From NCBI GenBank assembly GCA_036758585.1, contig DAIOWH010000001.1, forward strand, positions 98,462-162,461: a stretch of 64,000 bases of DNA. The letters run 5' to 3'. The notes below the pieces were generated by a model. The model saw only the letters and a list, made by a program, of their open reading frames with translations. It did not search any database and was not told the origin of the DNA. Position 1 is the stretch's first letter. Every line of letters begins with the position of its first letter. This document shows, piece by piece, positions 14,201 to 49,790 of the stretch. This stretch comes from Planctomycetia bacterium. Lineage in GTDB: Bacteria > Planctomycetota > Planctomycetia > JALXBF01 > JBGPMX01. The translations under genes and the position numbers were made by a program.

Positions 14201-17200
14201 GCCGCCTTCACCAGCTTCGTCGATGCACGTTGGGACGACACCAGCGTCGTACACGTCTTGACGTCGCTGATGCGAGTAACACAGGGCACTGAGCTGGTGA
14301 TCGATCCGGGCATCGCCGTCAAGAACCGGTTGGGGGCCATCCAGATAGACGGTCGCGGAACCTTGCGTGTGGGCGGTCCCAACGAGGCCGACAGCAAGGT
14401 CGTCTTTACATCGGTGTTCGATGACACGGTGATCGAAGACACCACCAGCGACGGCGCTGCCACCGTGTCCAGGGCGGGCGACTGGGGTTCGATCTTTACG
14501 GTTGAGCCGCCGCGGCGATTCAACTTGGCCGTCGCCGAACCCGGACTCGAGCAGCGCGTGATCGGTGGAGTCGGGCCTACGGTGATCATCGACGGCGCCG
14601 AGATCAAGTTTGGCGGCGGCCTCTACGTGGACAACCAGGTTCCGTCGCTCGGTTTCGGCGTAACCACGAATGTGGTGAACAACGCGCTGCGGCCGACCAT
14701 GACGCAATGCGTCGCCGCCGTCGCCAACTGCCGACCGCGCAGCGCCGTTCAGTTAGAGACGCCCGGTTACTATCAGATCACCAACACCGCGTTTCGCAAC
14801 AACGGACTCGCCAACAACGGCGCCCTCCTGACCGATCCGCCGCTCACTGTGTACGCCAACGTGCTGCGACCCGATATCCCGTTCGACATACCTACAACGT
14901 TCGTCGACGAGGCGGCGCTCAACGAAGATCCGCTGTTCCGCGACAACGACTTCGAAAACAACGAGCTCGACGGCATGGAGGTCCTGCCGATCTTCCTCGA
15001 TGAAAATGGCGACCGCGCCAATGACGAGTCTTGGGCGGCGAACCAGCCGAGCGAAGCCTACCTGCTGAACACTCAGTTTGTGGATCTAGATGCGGACGGT
15101 CGCCTGGAGCTGACCGACGGTATCGACGGGTTGTGGAATGACACGGATGTTGTTCACGTCGTGCGCAACACGATTGGGCTGCCCGGCCGCGTCGAAGTCC
15201 CCGGAGCGGCGGCCGGCCGATTTGGCATCACGCCGTTTCTCGACCCGGTGCAGTTCCGCGACCTGATTCTGAAGGTAGGCAAGGTGGATCAGGCAGACTT
15301 GCTGGAGCTTGACTTTGAGTCCGACGCACTCGGTGCGCCTTTGTCGCCGGGCCAGGTAATCCGACCCGAGGCCTACAACCTCTCTCCGTTCCGGGTTTCT
15401 ATCGTGCCCAACTTGGGGCTTTCGACACAACTGCGTATCGAGGGAACGCAGACGAACTTCTCGGACTTGTTCGCTCTGAATGATACTACTGCGGGTTGTG
15501 TCCCTGATCCGGAACTGCCCGGGTTCGTCCCGACCAGTGGCAACAATGTCCTCACCACAGATACGGACGGTTTTCCCCCAGCGGCCGATGGCGTCACGAT
15601 CCGGTTCAACCAGCCTGTCTATGCCGTAGGACTCAATATCATCGGCAACCGGTTCGTCGGTCTCGGTGAGAATATCGAGGTGGTCGCGCTTGACCCGAAC
15701 GGTGTCGAGGGCACGTTTACCACCGCGTTCCCACTAACCGGCGACGCTGGGAGCGCGTTCCGCGGATTCATCAGTGCATTTCCGATTGTCGAGTTGCGGC
15801 TGAACGAACACCTAGGCGATGAGGACGACCTCATCACGGCCCCCGTTGGCTGTCCACCCGATGATGAGATCTACGATGACGTAGCCTACGACGACCTCGT
15901 CTTCAGCACCGCGCCCGTCTTTCCGTTCCAGCCGACGGCGACACAACCGTCCGCCGCATTGACACTGACGAGCCTGGTATCGGGTCACGAGTTGCGCACG
16001 CCTTTGAACGAGGCTTTCCAAACGCTTAGCGACGCCGAGGGTTTGGTGGTGAAACTCTCTGGTGCAGCGCCGGCGGCGACCGTAACCGGCGCGCTAGCGT
16101 TCGGGGATCTCCCCAGCCAGAACCGTGCGTTCGTCGGTGCGGGATTTCAGATTGGTATGGACGAAGGCCATGACGCCTTCTTCGACACCGATTCGGCGAT
16201 CCAGAGCAATCCGACGACCGATTGGGGCCTTGGGTCGGCCTTCCGGATCCTGGGCGTGCCGGCGAACGAGGCCACGGGCCAACCGCGAGTGCCAGTCGTC
16301 TTGACGTCGTTGCGCGACGATTCCGAAGGACCCAAGGGCCAACCGCACAACACCGACGCCGTCAATGACTTGACCGACCAGCAAGGCTCCCTGATCGGCG
16401 TGCCGGGCGCGCCGGTCACTGGCGATTGGGGCGATATCTTCATCGGCGCCCGTTCGGCGGGAGACCGCGACGACCTCATGGTCCGCGATCTGCTCGGCCG
16501 CCTGGTCGCCGACGCTCAGGCCGTACCCGGACGAGCAGTGACTCCGAACGATGTGAGCACCGAGTTCCGTGAGGACTTGTTGCCCGCCACGATGGATGAG
16601 ACGCAAGGATCGGTCATCCTCGACGCGCGCATCAAATACGGCGCTAAGATTCGGTTGCAGGGCGCGTCGCAGATATCCAACCAGGCGAACTCGGCGGCGT
16701 TTGGCCAGGAGGCGCGCAATGGACGCGCCATCTTGCCCAACGGTCGGTTTCCAGCCACTTGTCCGGATTCCCCGCTCGATTTCTCGCCAGGTTTGTGTCC
16801 GGGCGCCTTCCTTGCCGAAGACGGGTCGATGGTCATTGCACACAACGAGCTGCTCAACTTACGCGACGCCGGCGTCATCGCTCACCCCGGTTACTTTTTG
16901 GCGGCCGACGCACAGCACGACAACTGGGTGTGGGTCCCGTCTGAGCCGTGGGTTTTTAACAACGTCATCGCATTCATAGATGAACTGAATGGCGTGGCCC
17001 CGACCGGCACGCAGGGGGCGCACGGAGTGCGCATTCAAGGCGCCGCTCCACCAGACTGCGACCGGTTCACTCAGGATGCCGGAATAGTAGCCGATGGCGT
17101 ATCCGGCGTGGTCATGCACAACACCATCTTCGGCACGCAGCAAGGTATAGAACTGTCGCCCAACGCGGCCGCGCTGGCGATCAACAACATCATCTCCGAC

Positions 17201-20077
17201 GCCGGCACTGGTCTGACGTTTGCCGGATGTGCTGGTCAGACCCCACAGGCCGGCTTCAACCTGTTCTTCAACGTCACCGGCGCACAACAGGGGCTGAACA
17301 ACATCGCTGGCAACCCGCTGTTCAACGCCCCGAGTCTGTTCTTGGATCCGACGACCGCCGATTTCCGCTTGGTGCCATTCTCGCCGTCAGGGCAGCCGAA
17401 CCCGGCGATCGATACTGCGATAGGTGAGTTTGCACCCAGTGCGCACTGGGTGAACACCATTGACGACGGCATTGTTCGGCTGCCACTACCGATCACGGTG
17501 TTTAACACATCGCCGCTTGGTCCGGAGAAGGATCTGGTCGGATCGGTTCGCCAGGACGACGTGCGCATTCAGAATTCGCCGCCGGCCGTTGGAGTGGGCG
17601 CCGAGGTGTTCTTCGACATCGGTGCGGTCGAGTCGCGTGACTTTGGCGCACCGGTCGTGCTCGATGCGGTGGCGATTGTGGGCGCCCAAAGCCCGCAATT
17701 GGTGCCGGTCGGGTCGGCCACGCCGTTGCAATTGAACGAAAGCCCAACCGTCATCGTCGTCACGCTGAGCGAAGACCTGGACATTGGCACCATCACCACG
17801 ACCGACACCGGGTCGGTGCGGCTGATCCAGGTTGCGGCCCAGGGTCCTGAGCAGCCAGTCAATATCCTGCATGCATTTGACCCGGCCACAGACACACTGA
17901 CGATAACGCCGGCTCAGTCGCTGGGCGATGGGAGATACCGTCTGGAATTGCGCGGGGCGGGGGGCGAAGGGCTGACCGATCTGGATGGGGTACGGTTGGA
18001 CGGCGAGTTCCCTGGCAGCCAATCCGTTTGCCAGGGTACGCCGCTGCCGAGTCCATGCACCGACCCAGCCACGGGCTACTCGAGTGGCGATGGGTTGCCG
18101 GGCGGCAATTTTGTCAGTGAGTTTACGGTGGGTGAGCCGCCGCGCGTCGAGTCCGTGACCGTCACCGACGGCCGTGCGGACCCGGTTGTGGTGCTTGGCC
18201 CGCCGCGCGGCGTTGACGCCGATTTCTTCCCAAGCGTGCCCGAATTCCGCATCGACAACCCACCCACGTCGATCGTGGTGGAGTTCCGCAAGGACGTCAT
18301 CGTTCCGACTGCCTCGACCTTTCAGGTGTTCTCGTACGGCGTTGACGGTCAGCCGCTCACTGCCGATGACGATCTGATCAGCGGCCAGTATTTCCCGCAA
18401 CCTGGCGCCACGAGCAAGGTGTGGGAATTCCGACCGACGGTGCAGGGAGTTCTGCCGACCGACACTGTCTGGTTCGTGGTGCTCGACGGAACGATCGCCG
18501 GCACCAACGACCCAGCCATCATCGACGCGAACGGCATCCCGCTCGACGGCGAGTTCCTCTCAGGCAACGAAGACGACAATCGCAACGATCAGATCGATCC
18601 GGGTGAAGACCGGAACAACAACGGCATCCTCGACTCCGGTCCCGATCTCGTGCCGTCGGGCGACGGCGCGAGTGGCGGCGACTTCGTCGGCTACTTCCAG
18701 GTGGGCGACATCGCGCCGCCGGTCACGGCGGCGTTGATCGTCGACCAGAAGTTCCAGGCCGTGATTGGGAGCTGTCCGCTCAACAATCTCGGCATACCCT
18801 TCGAGGTAGGGACGGCGACCTGCCCGTTCAACACAATCAACGAGGCGTTGGAGGAGACCACGGGCCTGAACAGCCCGAAGTTGATCGAAGTGTTGCCCGG
18901 CACCTACTTCGAGAACGTCGTGGTGGACAGTCGGCACCTAGGGGTCACGCTGCGTTCGCAAGAGGGCGATGCCGATACAATCATCGAAGTGGCGGTCGGC
19001 GCGAGCAACGCCGATGGCGTGGTTGTCGACGTCGCCCAACCGCCGTTGTTCATCGATCGCGGTTCAGACGTCGTGGTCGAGGGATTCCAGATTACGTCCA
19101 ACGGCCGAACCGCGGTGCGGATCGACGTTTCGGACGGCACGACCAGTTTGAAGCCGGTACTGCTGGGGCGCAATACGATCTTCGGCAACCAGACCGGTGT
19201 GGAGATTCTTGCCGGGTCGGGTCGGGTGGCGCGGCTGGAGAACAACATTATTTGGGCCAACAGCGGCGCGGGCGTGGAAGTGCGCGGCGGGACTGGCGTG
19301 CGGCCGGCCGAACTAGTGAACAACACGGTGGTGTTCAACCAAGAAGGCATTGTGGTGCGGGCCACCAGCGTGGGCAGTCCGAACATCGCCAACATCTTCA
19401 ACAACATCGTGGTTGGCTCCAACGGCGCCGGCATCCGCAGCGTCAACACCGCCGGCGCCACCATCGACTTCAACGACGTCTACCAGAACCTGGGCGGCAA
19501 CTACATCAACGTCATCCGGCTCGGTGAGCATAACATCTCGGCCGATCCGTTGTTCCTGCAGCCGGTGGGCCGTCCCGCCGGCGGTCGGCCCGATCCGTCG
19601 TTGGCCGATTGGCAATTGGGTTCGCTGTCGCCCGCCATCGACGCCGCGCTGGGCAGCGAGGATGTCAACCAGAACCTCACGCTCGACGCGGGCGAGGACC
19701 TGAACGGAAACAACCTCTTGGACGCCGCGCCCACGGAAGACCACAACCGCAACGCGCGGCGCGACGACCTTAACGTCTTCGATACTGGCTTGGGCTTCCC
19801 CACGTTCGTCGACCTTGGGGCGTTGGAGCGAGGCGCGGACTCGACCGGCGCGCCTGGCGCCCCGCGGAATCCCGGCAATATCGTGCGATCGACGGTCGCT
19901 GCGGTGGATCTGGTGATCAGTCGCGGCGAATACAGGGTGGACGAAACGGACGACGATGAGGTACAGTCCGATGCCGCCAATGAGTGGTCCGACGCCATCG
20001 ACGTACTGCTGGAACGGGCCGGGACCAGGGCGGGTCGCGCGGCGCGCCAGGATAGGCTTGAAACAGATCGCGACTAA
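2273..20077 (+). CDS. Giant multidomain extracellular/adhesin-like protein (5934 aa). N-terminal basic region + LERLESRELLS motif. Three tandem Ig-like modules, Ca-binding DxNxNG repeats, FG-GAP/VCBS-like repeats, a BNR/Asp-box sialidase-like propeller, and right-handed beta-helix (NosD/pectate-lyase-like) repeats
   Basis: Single uninterrupted 17.8-kb ORF. A GGAG lies about 11 nt upstream of ATG 2273. Three ~110-aa repeats (SVTP..AGA.L..SPS.IEA.L.EDLD..LQL.AAG.DGNLGT.DDVRI.P.RV.YSAATD..RFVVNGQ) are also visible as ~80%-identical DNA repeats at about 2850-3970. DLNNNGQLDVGEDANGNGLLDLSEDLNDNG lies at about 4658-4870. Repeated FGDWDEDGDTDIGVYR-type units follow. BNR motifs SKDSGTSW (10208-10231) and SDDFGRNWS (12110-12133) plus WYDTRND/AWTDTRL. 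Beta-helix repeat blocks (NNIIWANSGAGVEVRGG.. NNTVVFNQEGIVVRAT..) occur near the C-terminus. Confidence 0.85.
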   Translation: MAKTKAKRHQKSRRLVHGNSSPGGSRLGFLERLESRELLSDFQPVQVGFSWLTPGQPTVVQFNAAGQCLGVTGPAAGDHDDCAIGDVGPDRVTIQFSRNIDRRTFNAAADVTVTGDLDATDPFRVTSGVARRRVVTINTAGDLATGADANLTLGLRDIKAKGKSGAWLDPWTMTVNVNSDQPPAPGNTPPRVLSVTPAAGAQLNESPSFIEALLSEDLDSPGQNGIQLFAAGPDGNLGTTDDVRINPRRVDYSAATDTLRFVVNGQVADGLYQARVMGSLRDGAGSRLDGNGDGTAGDDFVWTFRVASDPGGGPTDTTAPGVVSVTPNAGATLTQSPSVIEATLNEDLDPAHLPDQNSLQLHAAGADGNLGTADDVRIVPTRVEYSAATDVVRFVVNGQLANGAYRARLVGDSIRDAAGNRAADYAWTFGVNVPTNPPPPGDTSAPTVVSTNPSPGAIITEPLTAIDVVFNEDLDPATVTPANFVLSASGGDGTFGDGNETTIAPQRIEYSPATDTGRFVIGSRLPNDLFQLMLVGTASIRDLAGNKLDGDRNGSGGDNFTATFSVAVAPPPDSSPGPHKDVLGGDPPDAIADVFPGAPTPTLDISAISGFADPNNLYINVRFNTTPPGTTIEAPSASEPNSVFGFIDIDTDQDLITPSFLTNFDRTPAPISSTPGVGIEFVVDIGSEARHPGSVDVLYTDEKVPLAGNDDFDSRDDLYIYRPLTGEFLIGLNSGGQLGTVLGPFQFGGVGETPILGNWDPDGAGPLRANGGDDLGTFDATTSTFKLDLNDDRRLGEDRDGDGLLDPTEDLNNNGQLDVGEDANGNGLLDLSEDLNDNGGFTEDLNGNGLLDPTEQDLNNNGRADNLVDTETFVFGFAAPDPADQVLFGDWDEDGDTDIGVYRAATGEFLLDLNGNYEIDAAVTDPIPELPFRFGPISTTNVALVGDWNADGRTEVGVFVRGEDLNGDGFFNDGTAAPLLDEAADGVDYNGDGDALDLFSEDLNNNSIREDGTGFFFLDRDGDRVQDASEDANNNGVLDPGEDKDEDPITAGTQGNAFLDNDGPFAFGLATDSPVFGQWSVVGRDDIGVYRQGLAGGQYILDYNSDRAVSVGEGPFAFGGVGDRPVVGVFSFDGTSRMGSYTPTTRAGTRIGGDQFFIDTNGDRAVSPREGPFTLAPTAPIEFLFDSFTVKLPLSQLGNDPGGIVNFVATVGPFAGFSDEAPDPPPPPTPPNPPVPGTPAASGVAAPLRVVELSFPNETAFRLTEPLADALPKSTIAIPGTSVVVGTVGLQARLAGGDASLQSILDRRSVDARTVLLEGSGGDDVFGNGNDVSISANQIVVGTSPSAALIGKSNDTIFFDLTGVDLGADLYRFTLVGDDPIRDFHGVPLDGDFLDANGDGALTNADLPSGNGVPQGDFIATFRLDAPPEVISFRMTRPTDRNVDPLGAAPSDTGVIGDGITNTRTPNFVGVVSDDRLPIIGDNPGDTFVAGGQFDLFEGSGEFLDEDLNGNQLFNDGSTAPLLDEAVDGVDYNNDGDTVDSVSEDRNANGQFDRTIYLGLRFTTPVDLASSGATNAVRGFIDIDADQVSATGGTGWIRDLDGDRTEDFSDGIVHLGREGDVPIVGQWLLGAGVNPTGDRLGIFRPSTGEFFLDLDGDGRFLPSEDANGDGVFDPSEDLNGNGLLDTEGPFASGVTSEDLDGDGALDPGEDVDGNGVLDVAVPVVGNFCADNPQTVAVECPGTEVGVFRSGLWTIDLNGDREFADGSFTYGAVGDIAVVGNWNGLPGDEVGVVTPSTATLAPRWLLDRDGDTSAANDTPFEYGTANDQQIPVVGDWSGNGRTKVGTYSPRFSQWRIDINGNTVLEAAEGPFVFGDPQSQPVVGDWNGDNADDIGTYNTFGPTNQGTGQWFIDADHVAGTTPTLTSNDGPHRFGLVGEDRNNDGVLQTLEDLNGNDAIDPPDLPIVGRWETNGQAAASDLFGVFRLRDASHVNTFGFTTSFNIAGRADLGIEYFVDLASESGGVANLVDARTSRVVQAVPIRLFPDSRTVIVDIPLAAMPEVSGGRVTFGAIVGSATEFTDQLPELPRAAQSAESLQLDFATGQTPGCRTGSDGIFNDGTTFTRGFGTFTLQVPTSDQLSETVVGCLPSVVRVRATDLFDKVNNIVSTSIVDRGVRVDLTPPRIYRVIPPDNSQGRDGPRILQLNFSEDLNGNGILDPGEDTNGDNLLNSDDLDRSTAERSSSYELFRADEQPFESDSNELRQITYNSVTDSVSITLGEGLDSGHYTFVALSLGGITDVAGNRLDGEPNPGARPGQANVFPSGDDVAGGDFTTTLLINQGPPIVTAAAGSAGPIVRAIYDLNNEDINGDGAFDAGEDVDGDGTFDLGDAPAPPREIVVTLDQPVMPSSVPLDLNGNGRLDCGPDGICGTGDSVDLNGDGVFGPGDGEVDADGDGDIDFNALDEDTKTVFLTRTRTVDQITGLVSSIGDGVFDPFSNRVLGFVEVTNDGHTLTFHPNPEFLDPDNDGVQEGLLADHYRFSLMGGGILQPEPSGLRDNIIVSCDDFRNDQLTRLVPDTVAPSLACRTDNRDNGQAPTPFDPSGFQTTTATDLFVTNTLNSQGPGNVLLTAVEDRGQLFNVFDDEIAVYVSKDSGTSWAKTPFFATDAARTIATPASPTTTSVTFDIAVHPSVAFDALGTAYVGYALYDLPNVPDFTLTGADTRFDAADRDALDTGGAVCQDCAEVVDVLATADAATYAFEIGFSQTVTPPSENALRPLFGRLDIDCDRDGGADFFADLASENFDPAVESRFVNLLVAAGVSPACNPSNLAPGSLVSPSIPIDYLGDRVRLRVARELVDMDPPVLADFRVLVSQSAGGPVSDAAPNAGFTAVRDRRFRSSAVALSRSVDVVTAPSGSAVFQSPIPASFHFHEDLNDNGANDAGDIDVDGDGQITQMTFVDLDPSIAVDKTRIYSDRARTPNSNFGFVYVAFVISGVGDEGSLSDRDIYVARSIDALVYNDPTLGFRPYWEASTFERPPVALPNPGPITFDSLDPTDLGFRPNFLGNQANDDLAAIPSEVASPRLAVGALGQVYVIWQDYSQQTVSIELDRTFDTFHANLISTFCDRDRLDTPFNLPTGQDPPLNPADTCPAQDAPGRLPPPLDPTVPITWRGSNWSGADITVALSTVNGFDDPASNGENDTFDEKARQPVCDAPQFPDIEIITTNLFGSCYSIAAQPRGITTNARIALDSSAGPFAGRVYVAYTSRHDPNDPVGHDDTDVFLTFSDDFGRNWSTYPAAFGTPPIPGSLLQEPGTQVNDVDRGSQFSPALSVDPVTGDVYMAWYDTRNDETDFVRGIFGNEQAEVFFAVGRPETAGITFLQNQVLTTRPSDQSLRNPNRSQFAYGDYIDIVGVDGVAHPAWTDTRLILVDHTAVPQREEQIAEVMTARIDVNPAFEPADQTPAVTDVLGNALDGEPINESDTVVGLPSGDGQAGGNFVAGFSISDRILFADSAFEEDPLRPSTGTADNPFPTLRRAIDQANSIRFSITFDRAIALPSAGAGNRVQGFIDLDVDRRVTTPVVDLDGDGDAGEPEDTFGLSRVNLLGLGPTGLGTEFYIDLASEFDHPGAVDLLNSVTRALVARIPVFIESTAPDTLVVEVPRGAIRVGEFIPDRVNFAIAVGVDADGDGVLEPAELHDEAPNRFVETDRDHFRVPPPGTPAVGAPLSEEGDTLLVGATLDIRRVIVDSVPTRPVVVHVRDGRTPGGQPVPYVVQPRSGGLNGTITVGHFTDVEFEPGVVVKLRAANLDVAGDGSNVFSRGDVNDPVIFTSLFNDDQNVGGDTNGDLDNTQQRRGDWGGIVFHANTDDALSLVNFTRLEFGGGVVPRAAEGGLDTDVRPEAITLKAARPAVVNTVIAQSGAAPVTLEQNAQAGMSATPDSFADDTALPADGTGAGQRGPLLRDLLFRDNSINGLLVHADHDTGEAAFTSFVDARWDDTSVVHVLTSLMRVTQGTELVIDPGIAVKNRLGAIQIDGRGTLRVGGPNEADSKVVFTSVFDDTVIEDTTSDGAATVSRAGDWGSIFTVEPPRRFNLAVAEPGLEQRVIGGVGPTVIIDGAEIKFGGGLYVDNQVPSLGFGVTTNVVNNALRPTMTQCVAAVANCRPRSAVQLETPGYYQITNTAFRNNGLANNGALLTDPPLTVYANVLRPDIPFDIPTTFVDEAALNEDPLFRDNDFENNELDGMEVLPIFLDENGDRANDESWAANQPSEAYLLNTQFVDLDADGRLELTDGIDGLWNDTDVVHVVRNTIGLPGRVEVPGAAAGRFGITPFLDPVQFRDLILKVGKVDQADLLELDFESDALGAPLSPGQVIRPEAYNLSPFRVSIVPNLGLSTQLRIEGTQTNFSDLFALNDTTAGCVPDPELPGFVPTSGNNVLTTDTDGFPPAADGVTIRFNQPVYAVGLNIIGNRFVGLGENIEVVALDPNGVEGTFTTAFPLTGDAGSAFRGFISAFPIVELRLNEHLGDEDDLITAPVGCPPDDEIYDDVAYDDLVFSTAPVFPFQPTATQPSAALTLTSLVSGHELRTPLNEAFQTLSDAEGLVVKLSGAAPAATVTGALAFGDLPSQNRAFVGAGFQIGMDEGHDAFFDTDSAIQSNPTTDWGLGSAFRILGVPANEATGQPRVPVVLTSLRDDSEGPKGQPHNTDAVNDLTDQQGSLIGVPGAPVTGDWGDIFIGARSAGDRDDLMVRDLLGRLVADAQAVPGRAVTPNDVSTEFREDLLPATMDETQGSVILDARIKYGAKIRLQGASQISNQANSAAFGQEARNGRAILPNGRFPATCPDSPLDFSPGLCPGAFLAEDGSMVIAHNELLNLRDAGVIAHPGYFLAADAQHDNWVWVPSEPWVFNNVIAFIDELNGVAPTGTQGAHGVRIQGAAPPDCDRFTQDAGIVADGVSGVVMHNTIFGTQQGIELSPNAAALAINNIISDAGTGLTFAGCAGQTPQAGFNLFFNVTGAQQGLNNIAGNPLFNAPSLFLDPTTADFRLVPFSPSGQPNPAIDTAIGEFAPSAHWVNTIDDGIVRLPLPITVFNTSPLGPEKDLVGSVRQDDVRIQNSPPAVGVGAEVFFDIGAVESRDFGAPVVLDAVAIVGAQSPQLVPVGSATPLQLNESPTVIVVTLSEDLDIGTITTTDTGSVRLIQVAAQGPEQPVNILHAFDPATDTLTITPAQSLGDGRYRLELRGAGGEGLTDLDGVRLDGEFPGSQSVCQGTPLPSPCTDPATGYSSGDGLPGGNFVSEFTVGEPPRVESVTVTDGRADPVVVLGPPRGVDADFFPSVPEFRIDNPPTSIVVEFRKDVIVPTASTFQVFSYGVDGQPLTADDDLISGQYFPQPGATSKVWEFRPTVQGVLPTDTVWFVVLDGTIAGTNDPAIIDANGIPLDGEFLSGNEDDNRNDQIDPGEDRNNNGILDSGPDLVPSGDGASGGDFVGYFQVGDIAPPVTAALIVDQKFQAVIGSCPLNNLGIPFEVGTATCPFNTINEALEETTGLNSPKLIEVLPGTYFENVVVDSRHLGVTLRSQEGDADTIIEVAVGASNADGVVVDVAQPPLFIDRGSDVVVEGFQITSNGRTAVRIDVSDGTTSLKPVLLGRNTIFGNQTGVEILAGSGRVARLENNIIWANSGAGVEVRGGTGVRPAELVNNTVVFNQEGIVVRATSVGSPNIANIFNNIVVGSNGAGIRSVNTAGATIDFNDVYQNLGGNYINVIRLGEHNISADPLFLQPVGRPAGGRPDPSLADWQLGSLSPAIDAALGSEDVNQNLTLDAGEDLNGNNLLDAAPTEDHNRNARRDDLNVFDTGLGFPTFVDLGALERGADSTGAPGAPRNPGNIVRSTVAAVDLVISRGEYRVDETDDDEVQSDAANEWSDAIDVLLERAGTRAGRAARQDRLETDRD

Positions 20078-20130
20078 ACGCGACAGAGTCTTGCCTCGGG
20101 GTGTTCCTGGGGCCGTGGAGATGGCAAACG

Positions 20131-23100
20131 ATGACTAACGCGACGGGCAAACGATTCGGAGCAGCACGGCGCCTCGGCCGCACCCGGCCGACGCTTCGCG
20201 CCCGGCACGCCGGACAGGTCGAGCGCCTCGAGTCGCGCGAACTGCTCAGCTCGTTTGCGCCGGTCGACGCCAAGTTTCTCTGGGGTGCGGCTGGCCCGAC
20301 TAGCTTGGCCCAGGTCTGGGTGAACGCCTCCGGCGATTGTGTGGGCGTCTCCGGTCCGCAGATGTTTCTGCATGAGGATTGCCTGCTCGGCGAAGGGGCC
20401 GGCCCGAACCGCGTCGTCGTTCAGTTCAACGCGAACATCGACAAACGCAGCTTCAACGCCGCGTCGGACGTCGTCGTCGGCGGCGACCTGGACCCATCGA
20501 ATCCGTTCCGCGTGTTCGGCGGCACGGCCCGACGCGGCCTCTTGACCCTGTTCACCACCGGCGGTTTCTCCGCGGACGACGGCTCGGAGATGACGCTGAC
20601 GATTCAAGGGATTTCGTCCAAGGGTCGCAAGCGGACGCCTGCGGTTGTGATGGACCCGTGGACAGTCACGTTGCAAGTAACGCCCGATCCCCCGCCGCCT
20701 CCGCCCCCGGTCGAGGTCTGTGGGGACAATGTCGACAACGACGGCGACGGCCAGGCCGACGAGGGCTGTGCGCCGCCGCCCCCGCCACCGGTCGAGGTCT
20801 GTGGGGACAACATCGACAACGATGGCGACAGCCGGACCGACGAAGACTGCGTCGTCACGCCGCCCGATCCGCGACCTTCGGTCTCGCCCGGCGACATCAC
20901 GCCGCCTCTCGTTGTGGGAGTGTCGCCGACGGTCGATGCCGTGATCGGCACGTTGCCCACCACGATTTCGGTCGCCTTTAGCGAACCAGTCGACCCGACC
21001 ACGTTGTCGACCAGCTCCATTCGCCTGTTCACCAGCGGCGGCGACGGCCGATTCGGCGATCGAGCCGACCGGCCGATCGCAACGAGCGGCGTCACCTACA
21101 ATGCCGCCGGTCGCACCGCGGTGCTGCAACTGGCCGAGACGCTCGGCGATGAGGTTTATCAGATTCAAGTAGGCGGAGCGCACAGCATCAAGGACCTGGC
21201 GGGCAACACGCTCGACGGCGACCGCAACGCTCTGGTCGGCGGCCTGTTCACCAGCGAGTTCCAGATCGACCGCTCGACGCCGAGTTTTGACCTCTCGCTG
21301 GCGCCGGTCGCGAACACCGGCATCTCCACCGACGAGACTACGTCGCGCCAAGACCATATCGGAGTCACCGGCCAGGTGAGCGACGGCAGCCTGAGTCGAC
21401 TTGGCGGCTATCAGGTGGCGATGGACGTCGATGGAGACGGCTTCGACGACGGCGGCGCCATCACCGACGCGAATGGGTATTTCACAGTTACGTCGCTCGC
21501 ACAGATTGCGACGTCCGGCCGGCATGATATCGACGTACGAGTAACCGACCGCGCCGGCAACTCGTCCGTGCGGACCACGACCATCAACGTAGATGCCGAC
21601 GCGCCGCTGCTAATGCCGATCAACCTTGCCGAGCGTCCAGACCCGAACGATTACCGAATAACGCCCGCAGGCCACGTGGTTCGGTTGTTTGACGAGTCTC
21701 CGACCGAACTGCGCATTGCCGTGAGCGAGAACCTGGCGCCCGGTCCGGCGCGCGACTTGGACAACTACCGCCTGGAACGTACCGGACAACTTGGTCTGTT
21801 CTCCAGTCCGACCGCGTTGGATTTGTCGTCTCAGATTAGTGAGGCCCGTTTCGATGAGACGACGCGTCAAATCGTGGTCACGCTGGCGTCCGCGCTCGCC
21901 GACGGCGAGTATCAGTTGGTCGTTCGCAGTCATGGCACGATCACCGACGTAGCCGGCAACCACCCAGTGTCGGACGGCATTCTGGGTTTCTATGTGGGCG
22001 CGTACCCTGCTGTGCGCGCCTTCACTCCGGCGGTGACGCCGATGACGCCCGACAACGTGCGGCAGATGCCCACCGTGCGCAGCAGCTCGATTGAATACTA
22101 CGGCCGCGACGGTGGGTCGCGGTCCGAGCAGTCCACCAGTTTCGGGTCTCGGTCTGCCGGTTTGGCCCGACTCACCGTGAACGAGTCGGAGACGTTCGGC
22201 AACAGTACCAACAATCCATTCGATCCTCAGATGCCTGGAACCGCCGAGCCGATCGCCGGGACGACGTTCCCGTTCGGCAACTTCGGCGTCGATCAGGGTG
22301 AAGATCCCGAGGCGTTCATTTTTGGCGACATCGACTCCGGACTTGACGTCGACGTGTATTCGTTTCGCGCCAAGGCGGGCGAGTCGGTGCGGTTCACGCT
22401 CACCGACCAGTTCGGCTTTTTCCCGTTCGGCGGCGAAATCGCGATCATCGACCTCGGTACCGACAACGCCGTCGGCGGTGCGGGCGACGCCGCCGACCGC
22501 ACGCTCATCAGCAACGTACACAAGTTCATCGATCCAGACTTCGCTTTTTTTCAACTCCTCGACCTGTCACAAATCGAGATTACGATCACCGGCCTGACCG
22601 GCCGCGCCCTGGACAATCCCGAAAACGAGCTGTTGAACCCGCTTACATCCGAACGCCGCGACCCGAGCGACCGCACGTACCTGTTGCGCGTCGACCCGTT
22701 CATCGGCAGCTATGTGATCTCTGCCGAGATGTGGGAGTCCTTCAGCCGCGATACGAACCAGAGCCAAATCGTCTATGTTGATTTCGACGGGCAGGAAGAC
22801 GTGTCCTTTCCGAACTATTTTACGGGCGGAACCTTGTCGGTCGACATGCCGCCGTTCGACATTCGCGATTTCGGCATCGACCCGATCTTTCAGAATCAGT
22901 TCATCGACACCGTGATGGCGGCGGTGCGAGAGGACTTCGAGCAGATCCGTGCGGAAGGAATCAATCCAGCCTACAATTTCCAACTGCGCGACAGTCTGTG
23001 GCATCCCGATCCAGGGAACGCCAACAACGTGCTTCGCGTGGTGGTAGGCGGCGCGGGCGACCTGATAGGTTTCCAGCCGTCGTTTGGGCTGGCGGGCATT

Positions 23101-26100
23101 GCCGACGCGTTAGATACCGGCAACCGGCAAGGCAACAACGTCGTGCTGGTGTTTCCGAGCGGACTCATCGACGTTGCACAGATTTTTGGGGTCGCCCCAC
23201 TCGGATTCACGCCCGCACAACTGGACGAAATCGCCCTCGAGACCGCCGCGACAGTCAGTCACGAGGCCGGCCACGTGCTCGGTCAACGGCATACGAATCA
23301 GGGTTTGTTCCAGGTCGACCTCGTAAACAACGTCTTCGGCTGCGATCCTCTGACGCTCGACAACATCGCCGACGCCTCGCCGCTCGGTTTCGGCGACGAC
23401 TTGCTGCACCGCTTCGACCGCTATCTGAACATGGACGACTTGTTCTGCCAGGGTCGAATCGAAGACTACGACGGTGTCGCCGACTCGGGCGGCGTGATCG
23501 CGTGGGGCATGGAAGGGCGCGACACGACGCCTCCGCGAGTACTCGACATCGATGTGTTGCCGGGACAGATCAAGATCGCGTTCGATGAAGGCGTGGATGC
23601 CGCCACGCTGATCAATCCGAACAATGTGCGACTGTTCCGCGATGACGGAAACAACGACTTCCAGAACGGCGGTACGCCCGTTCAACTCCGCCCCGTCACC
23701 GAGCGACAGTTGACCACCAGCCAGGCCGACCCTTGCGACGGACCCACGCAACTGGGCGTCAGCCTGTACGATGCGTGCACCACCACGCTGACCCTCGACG
23801 TATCCGATCCGGTCAACGAGATTCACAAGGACAAGAAGTATCGGTTGGTGCTCAGTGGCATCACCGACAATCCACTGAACCCCCTGAATCCAACCAACCC
23901 CCGGCCTAATGCGCTCGACTGCGAATTGAACCGCAAACCGTTCACCGGCGCGTATGTGTTTCCGACGGGCAACGGCACGCCTGGCTGCGGCGACGACGCC
24001 GTCTTTCCGGGCGACTCGACGAACGTGTTTCAGTTCGACTTCTTGGCAACCGAGACGGTGTTCGTCGATGGCGACTACAGCGCCGACAACGGCGCCAGTA
24101 CGGGACTCTTCGCCGCGCCGCACACTCTCCTGCCGCAGGCGTTGCAAGTAGCCGAGTACGCGGGATTCCTTCAGCCGCTGGTGGGTGAGCCGGAGCCGGT
24201 GACTGTGCGAGTGGCGCCGTCGATAGCTCCCTACCGCGCTGTAGACCCTCAACTCGATTCCAGTTTCAACGACCAGCCTGACCAAGGCAGCCTTTTTGTG
24301 CCGCCGCGCGTGAACCTGGTCTTCGACGGTCGCACCGACATCGTGCAGTCGATCTTTGTGGTCGCACCCGATCCGGCCGCCCCGGCGGACAATCCGGGCA
24401 CGATCTACCGCGTCGACGCCAACTCGCCTGCGGGCGGCAATGCCGTCGTGCTCGACCGGTTCTTTACGCCGCGGCCGATTCCAGGTGGCGCCGGGCTCGC
24501 GTTTGACGGGTCGAGTCTCTTCTTGACTCAAGACGCGCCCGGCGACGACGCCGTTTGCGACGAGATATTCACGCTTGATCCGTTCACGGGCGCGACCCGC
24601 AGCATCGTCACGCCGCGCACAGCATCGGCCACAGGCGCCGCGACGTGCCCAGCCGATGCGACCAACATCGACGGCCTGGCCGCCGCCGAGACCCTGCTGT
24701 TTGGCGTGGATGCGACCGACGAAAGGGTGGTGCTGCTCGATCGCTCGAACGGCACGCTTGTCGGAAGTTTCGTCGCGTCGTTCGACCTGGCCGGCGGCAT
24801 TGATTTCGACGCCACGACCAACACGCTGTGGGCGGCCGGCGTCGTCACGGACGTTGCGGACCCGTTGGTCGGCAGACGGGTGATCCGGCAAATGAACCCA
24901 GTCACCGGGGAGGTCCGAAACACCGTTCCACTTCCTGCCGGCTCGCCGTCCGCCGAGGGACTGGGACTGTCTGGCGACCGCATCTTCTTCAGCGACGTTG
25001 CCGGCCGCAACATTTTGGAACTCAACGAGGCTGACCCGTCCGCGTCGAGATCGTTTGCGTTTGCGCTCGGCGCCCCGGTGGCGCTGGCTGGTCCGCCCCG
25101 TGAATTGGTGGTGACCAAACTGCTGGGCACACGCATCGAGGCGTTCGGCGAAGATGCTTCGCTCAGCGCCATCGGCAAGAGCGTGGACGAGCCAGTGGTG
25201 TTTACCTCGCTGCGCGATACTGCGTTTATGGGCACGGGAGTCAGTTCCGCACTGGCCGGCGACTGGATGGGTTTAGTGTATCGTCCCGACTCGGCCGATG
25301 TGCTGACCGATCGCCTGACGCCTGAGTACGCGTCGGTGCTTGAAAACGTGCTGGTCCGATTCGGCGGCGGTCCGGGAACGATCATTCCGCCGGTTGATCC
25401 GGCGAGTCAGGATCCTGTACGCAAGTTCGGCGTGGTGCAGTCGCTCAGTCCGCTGAACCTCTTCGACGCGCGGATCAAGGTTGAGAACGTGGAGTTCTCG
25501 AATAATGCCGAAGCGGCAATCGCTGTTACACCGAACGCGCTCGAGCGGATTCAGGGCAAGTCCGGCTTCGAACTGTTCTGGGACGTCGAACCGGGCGCGC
25601 CGATCGTCGGCAACTGGTGCGTCGATGATCCAAGCACGCCGGCGGAGATCGAGTGCGAGGGCGTCGAATTTGGGTTGTATGAAGCCACGCGCCGACGCGT
25701 ACTGGTCGATGCCAACGGCAACCGCGAGTTGGACGAGGCCGAACAGTCCACGGCCGCGCTGGGCGAGACCGATAGCGTGCCGGTGGTGGGTAACTTCACG
25801 CCCGACATAGAAGGCCGCGATGAACTGGCGGTGTTCAATCGTGCCACGGGCGTATGGATTGTCGACGTCGACCGTTCGTTCAGCGAAACGGGCGCGGATT
25901 TGCTCATTGAGTTCGGCAAGCACGGCGATATTCCGATCGTCGGCGACTGGGGAGGCACGGGCACTGACAAGCTCGGTCTGTACCGACCGCGGCCGCGCAC
26001 GACCGACACAGAATGCCAGATGGCGGCGCTGTTACCGGCCGCTTGTTTCGTGCTCGACCTGAACAACAACTTCCGGTTCGACGCTGGCGAGGACTTCAAT

Positions 26101-29100
26101 CTGACGTTCGACCCCGACCAGGATCGGCTGTTTGGTGCTCGGACCGATGTGCCCGTGGTCGGCGACTTCTGCGTGGACGATCCGACCACCGCCCCGGTGG
26201 AATGCCCGGGTGACGAGATCGGCCTGTATCGTGGTACGTCCGGCGACTTCCTGCTCGACCGCAACGCCAACTTCTTCTTCGACCCAGGCGAACAAGACAC
26301 AAACGGCGACGGCGTCGAAGACTCGTCCGAAGTCAAGGGCGTACCGAACGGGCAAATCGACATTAACGACGGCCCGATCGTGTTTGGCCCGCTGGGCGGC
26401 ACGCCCGTCGTGGGCGATTGGTGTGTCGACGACGCCCTGACCGCCGCGGTCGAATGCCCCGGTGACGAGGTGGGCGTAGTCGATTCATCGCTCAAGTGGA
26501 TCGTCGATGCGAACGGCAATCTCAAACAAGATGAGTTGGAAGTCCTGGTTCAGTTTGGCAAGGCAGGCGACGTGGTCGCACCCGGCAACTGGCGCGGCAC
26601 GCGAGTCGGCGACGAGTTCGGCGTGTTCCGACCCGTGGAGGGAACCTGGACTATCGACTTGGTCACGCTCGACCCGACCCGGGCCGAGGACCCCAGCGAA
26701 GACATCGACCTCGATCGGCGACTGGACCGTAAGGAAGATGCGAACGGCAATAACACCCTCGACCCAGGGGAAGACCGCGACCTCGACAAGCGGTTGGACC
26801 TGGACGAAGACATCGACCCGGATGGCATCGGACCGCTTCTCGCCAATGGGCGGTTGGACTTGAATGATGGGCCGTTTGTGTTCAGTGCCGCACGTCGCAA
26901 CGACATCAGCGATTTTGTCTTTGAGAACAGTTTGAATTCAGTTTGGGTGCGTCCTGGCCTGCAGACGGTCTCGGACGCGCACTGGGACGACACGCAGATT
27001 CCCCACGTGCTTACCGGGACGGTAGAGATACAGGCATTGCCCCTCTTGGGAGTGGTGCCGACGCTGCAAATGAAACCAGGCATGGTCGTCAAGATGGGGC
27101 TGGCGAACCTGAACGTGGGTGGGTTTGGGGCCACGCTGCTGGTGGATTCCGACTTGGAGATCGATCAACCGCGCGTTGTGTTTACGTCGTTGTTGGACGA
27201 CGAGCGTGGTCCAGGCAGTCGACCGAACGACACGAACAACGACAAGGGATCGCTCACGCCGTTGCCGGGGGACTGGGGCGGCATCGTGCTCAGTTCCGGC
27301 ACCACGGCGGTCATCAACGGAGCAGAGATCCAATATGGCGGCAACCTGCGCGTGCCGGCCGGCACGTCGCTCATTTCGCCCAGTCCGATCACGCTGAACC
27401 AGGCGACCTGCAACCTCACTGGTTTCTTTGTGCTCGCCACCACTTGCGACCCTGTGTTCGCCACGATCACGAACAACATCATCGCCAACACAAACAACCT
27501 GCGGAACACGTCGAGTCCACGCACGCTACCCAGTGATGTGGCGGCGATCGGCGCCGTGGGCGTGTCGCTGTTGGGCCTGGGTCCGAACACGCCCCGAATC
27601 CCGTTCAACGCCAATCCGTTCATTCGTGGAAACGACGTCAGCCAGAACAACGGATTGAACGGGCTTGAGATCCGAACGTCGGAGTTCCAAGACCCGGCCA
27701 CGGCCCCGCTAACGTTCGCTCACGCGCACCTGTTTTCCGAATCACGGTGGGACGACACAGACATTACTCACATCTTGTTGGGCACGCTGCAATTCGTGTC
27801 GTCAGCGGCGCAGTTCCCACAACCGTTTGACATCCCGGACCAAACGTCCTTCACCAACATTGAGGGGTTCGGACTGACGCTCGCCAGCAACCCGATTGGG
27901 TTCTTTGACGAGTTCGACGGCACGGTGGATGGGGCCGCCGAGAGCCTCGTGGTGAAGTTTGGCGGCCGGCTTAGCAATCGTTACAGTTTGGCAGCGGCGT
28001 TTCCGGGCACGGTGATCGACAATGGTTCATTCGTGGGGTTCCCGCGTCAGATCGGGGCCGGCTTCAACGTGGGGTTCGACGACGGCGGCGCCAATACGCC
28101 GTTCCAGAACTTCCCGTGGGATTCGGGCGGCGACTCGTTCATCACGGTCCAGGGTATCCTGGGCGACCCGGAACGCGGCGTTCCTGCCAGTCCCGTGATC
28201 CTGACGTCGGTGCGCGACGATACCACTGGACCTCGGGGCGTGCAGGAGGACACGAACAACGACGGGGCGACGACCGCGCCGGCTCGTGGCGACTGGGAAG
28301 GAATCCACGTCGGCGCATGGTCGCGCAACGCCGGCCGAATCTCGCCGATCAACGGCGCGCCGCTGAGCGCATCGTCGATCCGCAACGCCGACATTCGCTA
28401 CGCCAACACTGCCGTACTGTTGCAGTCTCAATCGATCGAATTGGAAGGCAACCTGATTCGCAACAGTAATATCGCGATCGATTCGCTGCAGGGTCCGAAC
28501 ATTCCAGACGTCCCCATGGGAGTCAACCCGCCGCCGATTCCGCGCGATCCGGCCTCGCCGATCGTCTACAACAACCTGCTCATCGAGAACGGCATTGGCT
28601 ATCGTCAGACCGGCGGCCCCGACAACGGCAATCCGCTCCAGGAGTCGTTTCCGTCGCGCGCGGTGTTTGTCAACAACACCGTGGATGCCAATGACGCCGG
28701 CTTGGTCATCGCGCAGCGGTCCGGTCCGCTCATCATGAACAACGCGATCACCAATACGGTCGGCACCGGCTTGAATGCAGACAGTTCGTCCCTGCGATTG
28801 AACCTGGAAGCAAGCTTGCAGCACGATCCGCCGATTCAGATTGTGCGCAACCTGTTCTTCGGCAACGGCGCCAACGGCTCAACGGGTACTGTGCCCGCGA
28901 CCGTCGGCGGTCAGGAGATCGTGGGGTTGGCGCCGAACTACACGAGTCCCGGCTCGCCCGACTACAACTACCGGCCGGCGCCAGGCTCGCCGCTAGTGGA
29001 TTCGGCGCTGAGCGAGTACGGCGACGTCTTCGGGGTATACGGGCTGGTCGAGGCGCCGGACCGAGACCGTAACGGCCTGTTCCGTCGCGACCATTTTGGC

Positions 29101-31206: not shown

Positions 31207-31590
31207 TTGGAGGGTAGAAACTTGGCTAAGGAAACCAGTACAGCGGTCGAAGAACAACCAGCTCCTGCGGAACAGACCCAGCAGCCCGCTCGGGCCGTCC
31301 AAACCGAGGTGGTTGTAGACGAGGCCAGCGCCCACGCGGCCTATGCAAACTTCGCTCGGGTCACGGCGACCCCCGAAGAGGTGATCGTCGACTTCGCCCT
31401 GAACCCCCAGCCGTTCGCCACCGGTCGGCAAGAAGTCAAGGTCTCGCAGCGACTGATCATGAACTTCTACACCGCAAAGCGACTGTTGGGCGCGTTGCAG
31501 ATGACGATCCAACGCCACGAATCGGCGTTTGGCGCAATTGAGTTGGACGTACGGCGCCGGGCGAACATCCCAGCTACGGGCGCTCGCTAG
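31207..31590 (+). CDS. DUF3467-family small protein
   Basis: 127-aa ORF (TTG start in the track; the true start may be slightly downstream). YANFARVTATPEEVIVDFALNPQ...VSQRLIMNFYTAKRLLGALQ matches the DUF3467 pattern YSNLA.I.HS.SEFVLDF...R...TP.HAKRLL.AL recalled from Bacteroidetes/PVC proteins. Confidence 0.55.
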   Translation: MEGRNLAKETSTAVEEQPAPAEQTQQPARAVQTEVVVDEASAHAAYANFARVTATPEEVIVDFALNPQPFATGRQEVKVSQRLIMNFYTAKRLLGALQMTIQRHESAFGAIELDVRRRANIPATGAR

Positions 31591-32064: not shown

Positions 32065-32214
32065 TTCAGGATTCCGCACCGACCATCTGACGAGATTGAC
32101 GGACAGACCCAGGAAAACACGGCGACCCCACAGACCGCCTCCGGCGTTGACGGTTTGCCGTTTCGCCGATGTCTCAAGGACGGTCTGATTTCGGTTGGTG
32201 TAAGGAGAAAGAGG

Positions 32215-36636: not shown

Positions 36637-36750
36637 CGACGAACGTCAGACCCGCCTCGGGTTCGACCGGGGCGCAAGTGGGGCGTAGTACGACGGATGC
36701 AATGGATTGCCCGTGAGTGTGATACTTCGTGTGAAGTGGAGGCGATAAAC

Positions 36751-44259: not shown

Positions 44260-44392
44260 AAGTGACTCGCGAAACCGTCCAACCGGGGCAAATTGCCAAG
44301 TTTGTGAACCTATTGTAGCGGCGGCCTCAAGTAATCTTCCAGCACGAATTTCGGCTGCGGTCGCCGTCCGCCGTTAGATCGGGATTACTCCA

Positions 44393-44554
44393 CATTGAAA
44401 GAGGTTCGTTTAACCTCGTTTAACCCGCAGCCGCAGGCGAGGTGAGGCACAACAACGCCAGCCGTACCTCGCCTGCGGCTGCGGGTTAAACGACCGAGGC
44501 GGATTTCAGACCCTATTCAATGCGGCACAGTACTTAGCGGCACAGTACTTAGTC
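44393..44554. repeat. Palindromic intergenic repeat element, copy 2 (same orientation and loop as copy 1; carries small internal tandem duplications)
   Basis: Core stem arms at about 44419-44443 and 44468-44491. Duplicated cgtttaacc and gcggcacagtacttag units. Lies upstream of the VWA gene and downstream of the PP2C gene. Confidence 0.8.
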
Positions 44555-44733
44555 GTCGGCTCGCCCGCGGGATTCACGGCCAGAGTGGCCCGCGGCCCGC
44601 AGGGTTCAGAGTGGTCGCAAGGAGTATAGCCCGACCCGACGCGGATAGCAACTTGTTGACGCGGTTGATGTAAGGGCCGACCGTAAGGATACGCCGCTGA
44701 TTGATCGCCCAAACTGGCGTGAATCTTCTGGCG

Positions 44734-47174: not shown

Positions 47175-47358
47175 GGCAAGTTGCTCGTTCCGAGAGAAGT
47201 AGACCCACTGTAGATGGTCAACACGCGGAGGATTCTAGCGGGATCGTCCGCGAATGTCAGAGCCAAAGTATAAGTCGACGCACGGCGGAGTCATCTGAGT
47301 ACAGGACGCCAACGTGAATTGTCGGCAAGGCGAGCCATTGGTAAGAATGGATCGACGC

Positions 47359-47432
47359 GCGCCCGTAGCTCAACCGGATAGAGCAGCGGATTTCTAATCC
47401 GCCGGTTGCAGGTTCGACTCCTGCCGGGCGTA
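47359..47432 (+). tRNA. tRNA-Arg (anticodon TCT)
   Basis: Manual cloverleaf: acceptor GCGCCCG/CGGGCGT (G1-U72 wobble), D-arm GCTC-aaccggata-GAGC, anticodon arm GCGGA-tTtCTAa-TCCGC, variable loop cggtt, T-arm GCAGG-TTCGAct-CCTGC, discriminator A. CCA is not encoded. Confidence 0.85.
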
Positions 47433-47441
47433 CTTGGCTGG

Positions 47442-49748: not shown

Positions 49749-49790
49749 CTGGGTCCTGCACGATTTCGGTCGGGGCGGGCCGCTGCGAAC

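Follow-up and report, generated by a model that had tools for sequence, protein, structure and literature searches.

A predicted metzincin-fold protease domain and acidic cysteine/aspartate units in a giant gene of a putative planctomycete surface-protein cluster

A five-gene cluster with four predicted surface proteins

The window analyzed here is a 64,000-nucleotide (nt) stretch of DNA from a Planctomycetia bacterium (assembly GCA_036758585.1, contig DAIOWH010000001.1, positions 98,462 to 162,461 of the forward strand) with a base composition of 63.5% G+C. Four large open reading frames (ORFs), called g1 to g4, were found in the window, all on the + strand. The first, g1 (2273-20077), encodes 5,934 amino acids (aa) and is followed by g2, or giant gene 2 (20101-31005), an uninterrupted ORF of 3,634 aa when read from a GTG codon at 20101 and, from its likelier start, the ATG at 20131, of 3,624 aa. 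A small gene for a DUF3467 protein (31252-31590, +; PF11950, 81 bits) lies between g2 and the subtilase-containing g3 (32155-36636), which encodes 1,493 aa from a TTG codon and likely starts at an ATG at about 32215, and the series ends with g4 (36697-40011; 1,104 aa). The analysis was centered on g2, which encodes a zinc-protease motif deep within its product and which, together with g3, encodes short acidic Cys/Asp units.

An orthologue of g2, P0001 (3,762 aa), is encoded in three metagenome or metagenome-assembled genome (MAG) contigs (L018 to L020) that have the same gene order: a g1-like gene (5,735 aa), the g2-like gene, a DUF3467 gene (113 aa), a gene for an S8 protein (1,190 aa) and a gene for an FG-GAP protein (1,092 aa). 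The same five genes are present in the window. Identity between g2 and P0001 was 62% overall, 71% in the catalytic domain and 68% in the PPC-like segment (both domains are described below), and g3 and g4 were 54% (residues 21 to 1091) and 53% identical to their respective orthologues. The DUF3467 gene was the most conserved member of the cluster, being 90% identical to its L018 counterpart where the flanking giants were 53 to 62% identical, and its product could be a chaperone or an export partner.

Giant genes abound in planctomycetes, and the products of most of them are thought to be surface proteins (PMC5177795). The sequence RRLxxExLExRxLLA is described in PMC8567305, after Studholme et al. 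(2004), as a signal for export at the N terminus of cell-surface proteins in planctomycetes. Consistent with such a signal, which has a basic stretch ahead of LExRxLL and lies in roughly the first 50 residues, each of g1 to g4 encodes ERLExRxLL[ST] after a basic stretch and 30 to 45 residues from its start (motif at 2369, 20227, 32284 and 36808, + strand); in g2 the segment reads VERLESRELL (20221-20250, +). The six-frame translation of the window contained four matches to the pattern LE.R.LL and no more, one in each of g1 to g4. No classical hydrophobic signal peptide was obvious in the first 80 residues of g1 to g4 when these were inspected by eye, without a predictor. We conclude that the products of all four genes are predicted to be exported. 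A planctomycete origin is indicated by three features: the export motif, the taxa in which the relatives occur (see below) and a nearby gene for a ThuA-DUF7133-cytochrome c protein. The likeness of g1 and g2 extends over their N-terminal 80 or so residues (...ERLESRELLS.F.PV...), which suggests that the two are old paralogues.

The zinc motif of g2 belongs to a family without a curated model

The only HExxH among the approximately 12,000 residues encoded by g1 to g4 lies in g2, within the sequence HEAGHVLGQRH (23260-23292, +; residues 1054 to 1064). The motif reads H1054-E1055-A-G-H1058-V-L-G1061-Q-R-H1064, in full agreement with the metzincin signature HExxHxxGxxH/D, and a perfect copy of that signature some 1,050 residues into a giant protein, as claimed in the original prediction, was thereby confirmed in an uninterrupted ORF. 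The surrounding catalytic domain spans 22765-23508 (+; residues about 889 to 1136). Just upstream is a PPC-like (pre-peptidase C-terminal type) beta domain (22318-22680, +, bounds approximate). The Pfam PPC match in g2 was weak and partial (E = 0.024 at 22345-22413), and stand-alone relatives of the catalytic domain carry PPC (PF04151) at the same place, ahead of the catalytic domain.

An exhaustive HMMER search of g2 residues 860 to 1145 against 1.84 billion cluster representatives returned 211 relatives at E values of 1e-3 or lower (28 at 1e-10 or lower), and nearly all had HExxHxxGxxH at the aligned position. When 264 family domains drawn from P0001 to P0260 were aligned, the motif columns held H in 258, E in 259, H in 254, G in 232 and H in 251 of them. 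The family consensus is QIxFxDFDG ... NSRDHxDPxGQPNVSRVIVGGT ... GIAxSIDxGNF ... HEAGHxLGxxHTD ... NIMDxGG ... GxGxDxIFGTxDD, and the family invariants (FVDFDG, GIAxxxDxGN, H-E-H-H and D222; columns D, G and D-G-N) were all present in the g2 copy. Relatives such as P0004, P0008 and P0022 and proteins of Lentzea, Actinophytocola and Streptomyces are homologous to g2 over the whole domain of about 250 residues (E values of 1e-18 to 1e-10). They have in common with it a PPC domain upstream and the blocks FVDFDG, GIAxSIDxGN and HEAGHxxGxxH. The g2 protein, P0001 and P0002 form a divergent subfamily that is about 30% identical to the rest of the family and is found about 1,050 residues into giant proteins.

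Typical members of the family are 400 to 700 aa long, with PPC immediately upstream and sometimes a dockerin downstream. They are annotated as "hypothetical protein" throughout, and precomputed Pfam domains are lacking in nearly all of them. Named relatives come from Lentzea, Actinophytocola, Micromonospora, Streptomyces and Holophagales. A scan of a genome collection with the single g2 protein as the query found no relative, and a scan with a three-sequence alignment found distant ones (26 to 32% identity), mostly in Planctomycetota MAGs (Pirellula and Phycisphaerae) and some in Acidimicrobiales and others; the source species is therefore absent from the GTDB representatives. A look-up of g2 by its exact sequence returned no record. 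The family is widespread, with many members in Planctomycetota, Actinomycetota and Acidobacteriota. One relative, P0003 (1,924 aa), has three tandem catalytic domains (residues 316-574, 712-973 and 1372-1627), each with its own HExxHxxGxxH.

The original prediction had proposed a comparison with M10, M12 and other metzincin families, and membership in the curated M10, M12 and M43 families was not supported: Pfam models of M10, M12 and M43 matched only 20 to 40 residues of the g2 segment around the motif, at E values of about 0.1 and below their cut-offs. No curated metzincin family among those compared with the segment (Peptidase_M10, Astacin, Reprolysin_1 to Reprolysin_5, Peptidase_M43, M57, DUF4953 and the NCBIfam metzincin models) reached its gathering cut-off. 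When 18 family members were compared with Pfam and NCBIfam, scattered subthreshold matches to assorted metzincin models were obtained at E values of 1e-4 or higher. A phmmer search of the g2 segment against Protein Data Bank (PDB) sequences gave motif-level matches only (E values of 0.15 or higher), a word-indexed protein search with g2 residues 690 to 1145 found nothing, and tblastn against plasmids gave no match. We conclude that the domain belongs to a family that is neither curated nor named in any database.

The predicted fold is that of a metzincin

AlphaFold run with the single sequence gave a predicted local distance difference test (pLDDT) score of 31, and the model built from a 58-sequence alignment (A2) had a pLDDT of 73 and a predicted template modeling (pTM) score of 0.78. 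Within the A2 model, pLDDT reached 84 to 94 in the N-terminal subdomain and in the active-site helix. The order of elements, numbered by model residue, was strands, a long backing helix (69-93), strands, a long helix (179-200) and a C-terminal helix; the succession of strands, backing helix, active-site helix and C-terminal helix is the metzincin layout. Helix 179-200 carries H195-E196-x-x-H199 and ends two residues before the motif Gly. The features of the fold, namely, a five-stranded sheet (a mixed sheet in the model), the backing and active-site helices and a lower subdomain with a C-terminal helix, were all present in the model.

Comparisons with known structures and sequences pointed the same way. 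The first 27 Foldseek matches of the model were all metzincins, and the family profile, when searched against PDB sequences, matched metzincins only (MMP-3, E = 6e-4), with the match centered on the motif helix. The original prediction had asked whether a metzincin fold would be predicted around the motif or whether HExxH occurred there by chance, and the layout of the A2 model and the uniformly metzincin matches bear out the former. We conclude that the domain is predicted to have a metzincin fold and that, once homologues are considered, the occurrence of the motif, like that of the Cys/Asp units discussed below, is far beyond chance.

The Met-turn methionine is probably replaced in g2

The Met-turn, which the original prediction had named as a check on the fold, lies in most family members in an N-[IL]-M-D segment 11 to 12 residues past the third His. 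In g2, P0001 and P0002, an 18-residue insertion follows that His. MAFFT alignments A1 and A3 indicated that the homologous segment in g2 is N-I-A1090-D-A-S (23362-23379, +; Ala1090 codon at 23368-23370), such that the Met-turn site is Ala in g2 (DNIADAS), Ile in P0001 (DNIIDAS) and Met in P0002 (NNIMDAV). The program hmmalign put the g2 segment in a different column, and the model was of low confidence there. The MAFFT placement (A3) was kept because the three close homologues share T-L-x-x-N-I-x-D-A in alignments A1 and A3 and because P0002 has Met at that place. No Met occurs between His1064 and residue 1110 of g2, the next Met is not conserved, and no conserved Met was found downstream of His1064 in the subfamily of g2, P0001 and P0002. 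Thus, the expected Met was not found, and it has probably been replaced by Ala in g2, as read from the alignments.

Among the 264 aligned family domains, the Met-turn column held Met in 208, Ile in 19, Gln in 11, Ser in 4, Leu in 3 and a few other residues in the remainder, and about 17% of the family lacked Met there and kept the zinc motif. The zinc motif is nearly invariant, and the Met-turn column, a site commonly described as invariant, shows natural variation.

One way in which these features could be explained is if the g2 domain is a pseudo-peptidase, which kept the fold and the motif, lost efficient catalysis through the loss of the Met-turn Met and the remodeling of its C-terminal subdomain, and now has a binding or structural role in the surface scaffold. 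Inactive homologues are a recognized class among metallopeptidases (PMC11266112), and the Ala and Ile at the Met-turn site, the subfamily-specific insertion past the third His, the diverged C-terminal motif and the low model confidence in that region would all be in keeping with such a loss. Substitution of the Met-turn Met by Leu, Ala or Ile in a serralysin compromised kinetics, and the same variants could still be isolated, Met-to-Ala as a folded enzyme (PMC1266349); the loss of the Met would therefore weaken the enzyme and not necessarily kill it. The four catalytic and ligand residues and the motif Gly are intact in three lineages that are 47 to 71% identical, whereas true pseudoenzymes usually lose them, and the members of the wider family that have the motif without the Met indicate that the family tolerates the change. 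A working active site is favored because the domain is more conserved than the protein as a whole (71% versus 62% identity between g2 and P0001) and because the motif is kept down to 47% identity, and constraint on the catalytic domain appears to be at least average. We consider a pseudo-peptidase unlikely.

Cys/Asp units are variants of the PF11617 repeat

The second element in question is an acidic unit of the form PPPPPP-x-E-x-CGDNxDN[DN]G[DN]xxxDExC. Translation and a degenerate pattern search of the six-frame translation of the window identified the unit at three places only, two in tandem in g2 and one in g3, as had been predicted. The tandem units, PPPPPPVEVCGDNVDNDGDGQADEGC and PPPPPPVEVCGDNIDNDGDSRTDEDC, span 20695-20867 and have their Cys codons at 20719/20767 and 20800/20848. 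Unit 1 (20695-20775, +) reads PPPPPP-VEV-C207-GDNVDNDGDGQADEG-C223 and contains an exact DxDxDG, and unit 2 (20776-20867, +) reads PPPPPP-VEV-C234-GDNIDNDGDSRTDED-C250 and continues into a Pro-rich tail. Unit 3, VPPPPIDEICGDNIDNNGNGLVDEGCPPPPPP, lies in g3 (35524-35615, +; residues about 1124 to 1154; Cys codon at 35548) and reads PPPP-IDEI-C-GDNIDNNGNGLVDEG-C-PPPPPP. The repeat period of the g2 units was 81 nt (27 aa) and not the approximately 60 bp proposed earlier. Units 1 and 2 were 77% identical over 92 nt, and unit 3 was 76% identical to unit 1; over 96 codon-aligned nt, identity was 77% (units 1 and 2), 73% (units 1 and 3) and 63% (units 2 and 3), and units 1 and 2 were 72% identical in amino acid sequence. 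There was no sign of very recent gene conversion, as the three copies are about equally diverged (63 to 77% nt identity).

The original prediction had also likened the units to MopE, and this claim was upheld in part. Together, the two g2 units matched PF11617 at 25.5 bits (E = 1.6e-5), and the g3 unit matched it at 18.2 bits, with the matches confined to profile positions 14 to 30. Both scores were below the PF11617 cut-off of 27 bits, and the units scored 15.6 and 13.3 bits against NF033662, for which the cut-off is 41 bits. What PF11617 and NF033662 units and the window units have in common is an E-x-C-x-D-x-x-D-N-D-x-D-G-x-x-D-E core and a period of about 27 residues. The window units differ in having two Cys each (C-x15-C, with cores DNDGDG, DNDGDS and DNNGNG), not the four of two disulfides, which include the Cys of D-N-D-C-D-G, such that one disulfide would be expected, and polyproline takes the place of the first half of the Pfam model. 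A phmmer search of the two-unit peptide against PDB sequences found nothing.

Relatives of the units in metagenomes connected them to canonical repeats. A degenerate DNA pattern for CGDNxDN[DN]G[DN] matched 54 metagenome loci, 48 of which were distinct; 11 of the latter were of the window type (C-x15-17-C ending in D-E-x-C), 24 were of a "...DCxDxxC" type and 11 had a longer loop. In 9 of the 11 window-type loci, E-[IVL] precedes the unit, as it does in the window. An ORF in L038 (767-4543, -; 1,259 aa) matched PF11617 at 120 bits over 10 stretches, each at profile positions 14 to 30, and contains the array EICDFIDNDCDGQVDEIGC - EVCGDNIDNDGDGSVDEGC - EICGDNIDNDCDGAIDENC - EICGDNRDNDCDGAIDEGC with a period of 26 to 27 aa, in which EVCGDNIDNDGDGSVDEGC is of the window type and EICDFIDNDCDGQVDEIGC and EICGDNIDNDCDGAIDENC are canonical. 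By register, period and flanks, the L038 protein thus ties the window type to bona fide PF11617 units, and the window-type unit is taken to be a natural variant of the canonical repeat because it stands in register inside a PF11617 array. We conclude that the units are variants of the PF11617 acidic repeat with presumably one disulfide, the DND-Cys and the linker Cys being absent. The L038 protein also has 11 TSP_3 repeats and VWA domains, and its G-type (DNDGDG) and C-type (DNDCDG) units alternate. Elsewhere, a polyproline-flanked unit, PPPPPPEICGDNIDNNGDGVVDETCPPGP, occurs in an unrelated NIDO/HYR protein (L062), and a unit, CGDNIDNDGNNLVDDC, lies inside an S8 subtilase (L071:2180-4033, -), between the regions of the catalytic Asp (DEGVD) and His (HGTHVAG), where the acidic loop is probably a calcium-binding in-domain insertion of the serine protease.

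Partial matches to PF11617, the name of which is "Cu-binding_MopE", could indicate that the units are sites for copper or another transition metal through which g2 and g3 capture metal, and weak NosD-like and CopC-like matches were found elsewhere in g1 and g2. The CopC matches, however, overlap Big_5 Ig domains, and the NosD matches are to generic beta-helix. His, Met and Trp are all absent from the units. In MopE* and CorA, two His and a kynurenine form the copper site, and acidic side chains make up a separate site for calcium (PMC3423442, PMC3912023). The core of the units is of the calcium type Dx[DN]xDG, which is matched exactly in unit 1 (DNDGDG) and missed by one position in units 2 and 3; that motif binds calcium in at least twelve families and in many unrelated folds (PMC3123361). 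With no such copper ligands and a calcium-type core in the units, and with a TSP-3 repeat in the same slot of the orthologue (see below), the copper reading was rejected as highly improbable, and the sequence of the cores suggests calcium instead.

Units appear to have been exchanged as cassettes

The original prediction of module shuffling within the cluster was supported by the orthologous locus, which lacks the units in the counterparts of both g2 and g3. In g2, about 60 residues with the two units lie between the conserved flanks MDPWTVTLQV and SPGDITPPL; in P0001, the interval between these flanks is about 170 residues long, and Pfam identified Big_5 (30.8 bits) and TSP_3 (31.3 bits; cut-off, 25) in it. 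The two proteins thus have different acidic cassettes of the calcium type at the same place. TSP-3 repeats bind calcium. They resemble the window units in having acidic, Cys-closed loops of the DxDxDGxxDxxD type in extracellular multidomain proteins, and TSP_3 occurs alongside window-type units in L038, L073 and L028. Their Cys spacing and flanks, however, are unlike those of the window units, which gave no TSP_3 match even at E values up to 10.

In g3, likeness to the 1,190-aa orthologue stops at residue 1091, about 30 residues before unit 3, such that unit 3 sits at the seam between the conserved body of g3 and an extra C-terminal region. That region (35618-36633, +; about 340 aa, residues about 1155 to 1493) has no counterpart in the orthologue, and a Pfam scan of it gave no match. 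We conclude that the units are likely lineage-specific cassettes and that the C-terminal domain of g3 appears to be newly acquired. Recurring G-x-[LV]-V-x-[FHY] and W-x-x-x-D[VLM] segments in the extension could point to a repeat domain of the beta-propeller or lectin-like kind.

Function of the domain and comparison with known systems

Taken together, the results favor, if with some reserve, a reading of g2 as an exported surface giant that contains a zinc endopeptidase domain, from a metzincin-fold family without a curated model, that probably acts on external proteins, and in which the units are disulfide-clamped, probably calcium-stabilized, interchangeable linkers. In the domain, His1054, His1058 and His1064 would hold zinc and Glu1055 would activate water. 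Most likely, the domain is still catalytic and would cut external protein substrates while tethered to an Ig, beta-propeller and beta-helix scaffold; the enzyme may be weakened, as the structural Met beneath the zinc site is apparently Ala. Each 27-residue unit is made up of a polyproline stretch and an acidic loop of 17 residues with a Cys at either end, and the units would form small knots, stabilized by calcium and clamped by a disulfide, between stiff polyproline segments and would act as interdomain spacers.

Several observations weigh against this reading. Besides the residues at the Met-turn site and the kinetic cost of such substitutions in serralysin, the C-terminal subdomain of the model had a pLDDT of only 43 to 73 and includes the 18-residue insertion, Foldseek support was weak (best E value, 0.024), and the g2 subfamily differs at sites conserved in the family (RDSLWH for NSRDH and GNR for GNF). 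As for the units, besides their scores below the PF11617 and NF033662 cut-offs, unit 2 (DNDGDS) and unit 3 (DNNGNG) each depart from a strict Dx[DN]xDG at one position, and a word-indexed protein search with the two-unit peptide found nothing.

The original prediction had raised the possibility of self-processing, in which the metzincin domain, after export, would cut the giant precursor or the products of g1, g3 and g4 at linkers and so free or activate fragments. An intact motif within a multidomain protein of 3,634 aa that has long Pro-rich linkers, conservation of the domain above the protein average and a conserved five-gene order that includes a second protease (the S8 domain of g3) are consistent with such a role. 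No cleavage sites, however, could be identified from the sequence, and most family members are ordinary secreted proteins of 400 to 700 aa with PPC, dockerin or other binding domains, which suggests external substrates; the three tandem catalytic domains of P0003 are likewise not required by self-processing. We regard self-processing as rather unlikely, and both it and the adhesin-like character that the original prediction gave to the scaffold are speculative. A broader version, which we consider quite improbable, is that the domain of about 250 residues, preceded by PPC, frequent in Planctomycetota and Actinomycetota and with a dispensable Met, founds a new metzincin family at the MEROPS level and that, in giants, it acts as a built-in maturase that cuts the precursor and its partners at polyproline and calcium-knot linkers, with the cluster assembling a processed surface structure.

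Among known metzincins, adamalysin/ADAM (MEROPS M12B), ADAM17, atrolysin C, archaemetzincin, fragilysin and matrix metalloproteinases (MMPs) were only 10 to 18% identical to the g2 domain, which differs from them in having no disintegrin or cysteine-switch context, PPC upstream, Ala at the Met-turn and the 18-aa insertion. In cytophagalysin, the catalytic domain lies near the N terminus, behind a pro-segment. That 137-kDa protein of the pappalysin family resembles g2 in combining, within one secreted protein, a metzincin domain with many Ig-like and other beta domains (PMC11674741); it belongs to another metzincin family and has about one-third the size of the g2 protein, in which the domain is internal.

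We consider three features modestly interesting: a metzincin family without a curated model, a non-Met "Met-turn" in a subfamily and a one-disulfide MopE-type repeat. Planctomycete giant genes are numerous and almost wholly unannotated, and the analysis gives one of them, with its five-gene cluster, an enzymatic handle. The family delineated here comprises at least 211 clusters at 50% identity and could become a Pfam or MEROPS entry, and its Met-turn variation on a retained zinc motif provides a data set for the old question of the role of that Met. The polyproline-flanked unit shows how small calcium-type knots may be exchanged as linkers in the course of domain gain or loss by giant surface proteins. 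These are advances in annotation and refinements of known principles and systems, not new ones.

Other features of the window

Pfam regions in g2 were Big_5, Big_13, Beta_helix, DUF1565 and NosD-like, and the remainder of the protein consists of Ig-like Big_5/Big_13 domains, Cys-containing FG-GAP-like repeats and long right-handed beta-helix regions. Two direct repeats of about 95 nt, 252 nt apart and 71% identical, were found in g2 at 26129-26475 (+); they encode the Cys-containing segments VPVVGDFCVDDPTTAPVECPGDEIG and TPVVGDWCVDDALTAAVECPGDEVG, which resemble FG-GAP/VCBS-type blades into which a disulfide loop has been inserted. In the g1 protein, Big_5 domains occur together with at least 12 DxDxDG loops and a beta-helix at the C terminus, and neither HExxH nor Cys-clamped units were found. 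The Peptidase_S8 domain of g3 was located by Pfam at 33706-34590 (+; residues 518 to 812), and the S8 triad motifs DTG, HGT and GTSAS are present in the translation. Antisense ORFs (for example, 20074-21525 and 23110-24891, - strand) were set aside, as long open frames are usual in DNA of 63% G+C and the + frame is confirmed by the orthologue.

Past g4, the genes at 40094-54500 are on the - strand and encode a TPR protein, a 916-aa VWA-TPR-STN protein, a SpoIIE phosphatase, a HAMP protein, a GH2 glycosidase and a 1,569-aa ThuA-DUF7133-cytochrome c protein. The orthologous locus has an M50/CzcB-like gene in their place, and because the downstream genes differ between the two loci, the conserved unit stops after g4.

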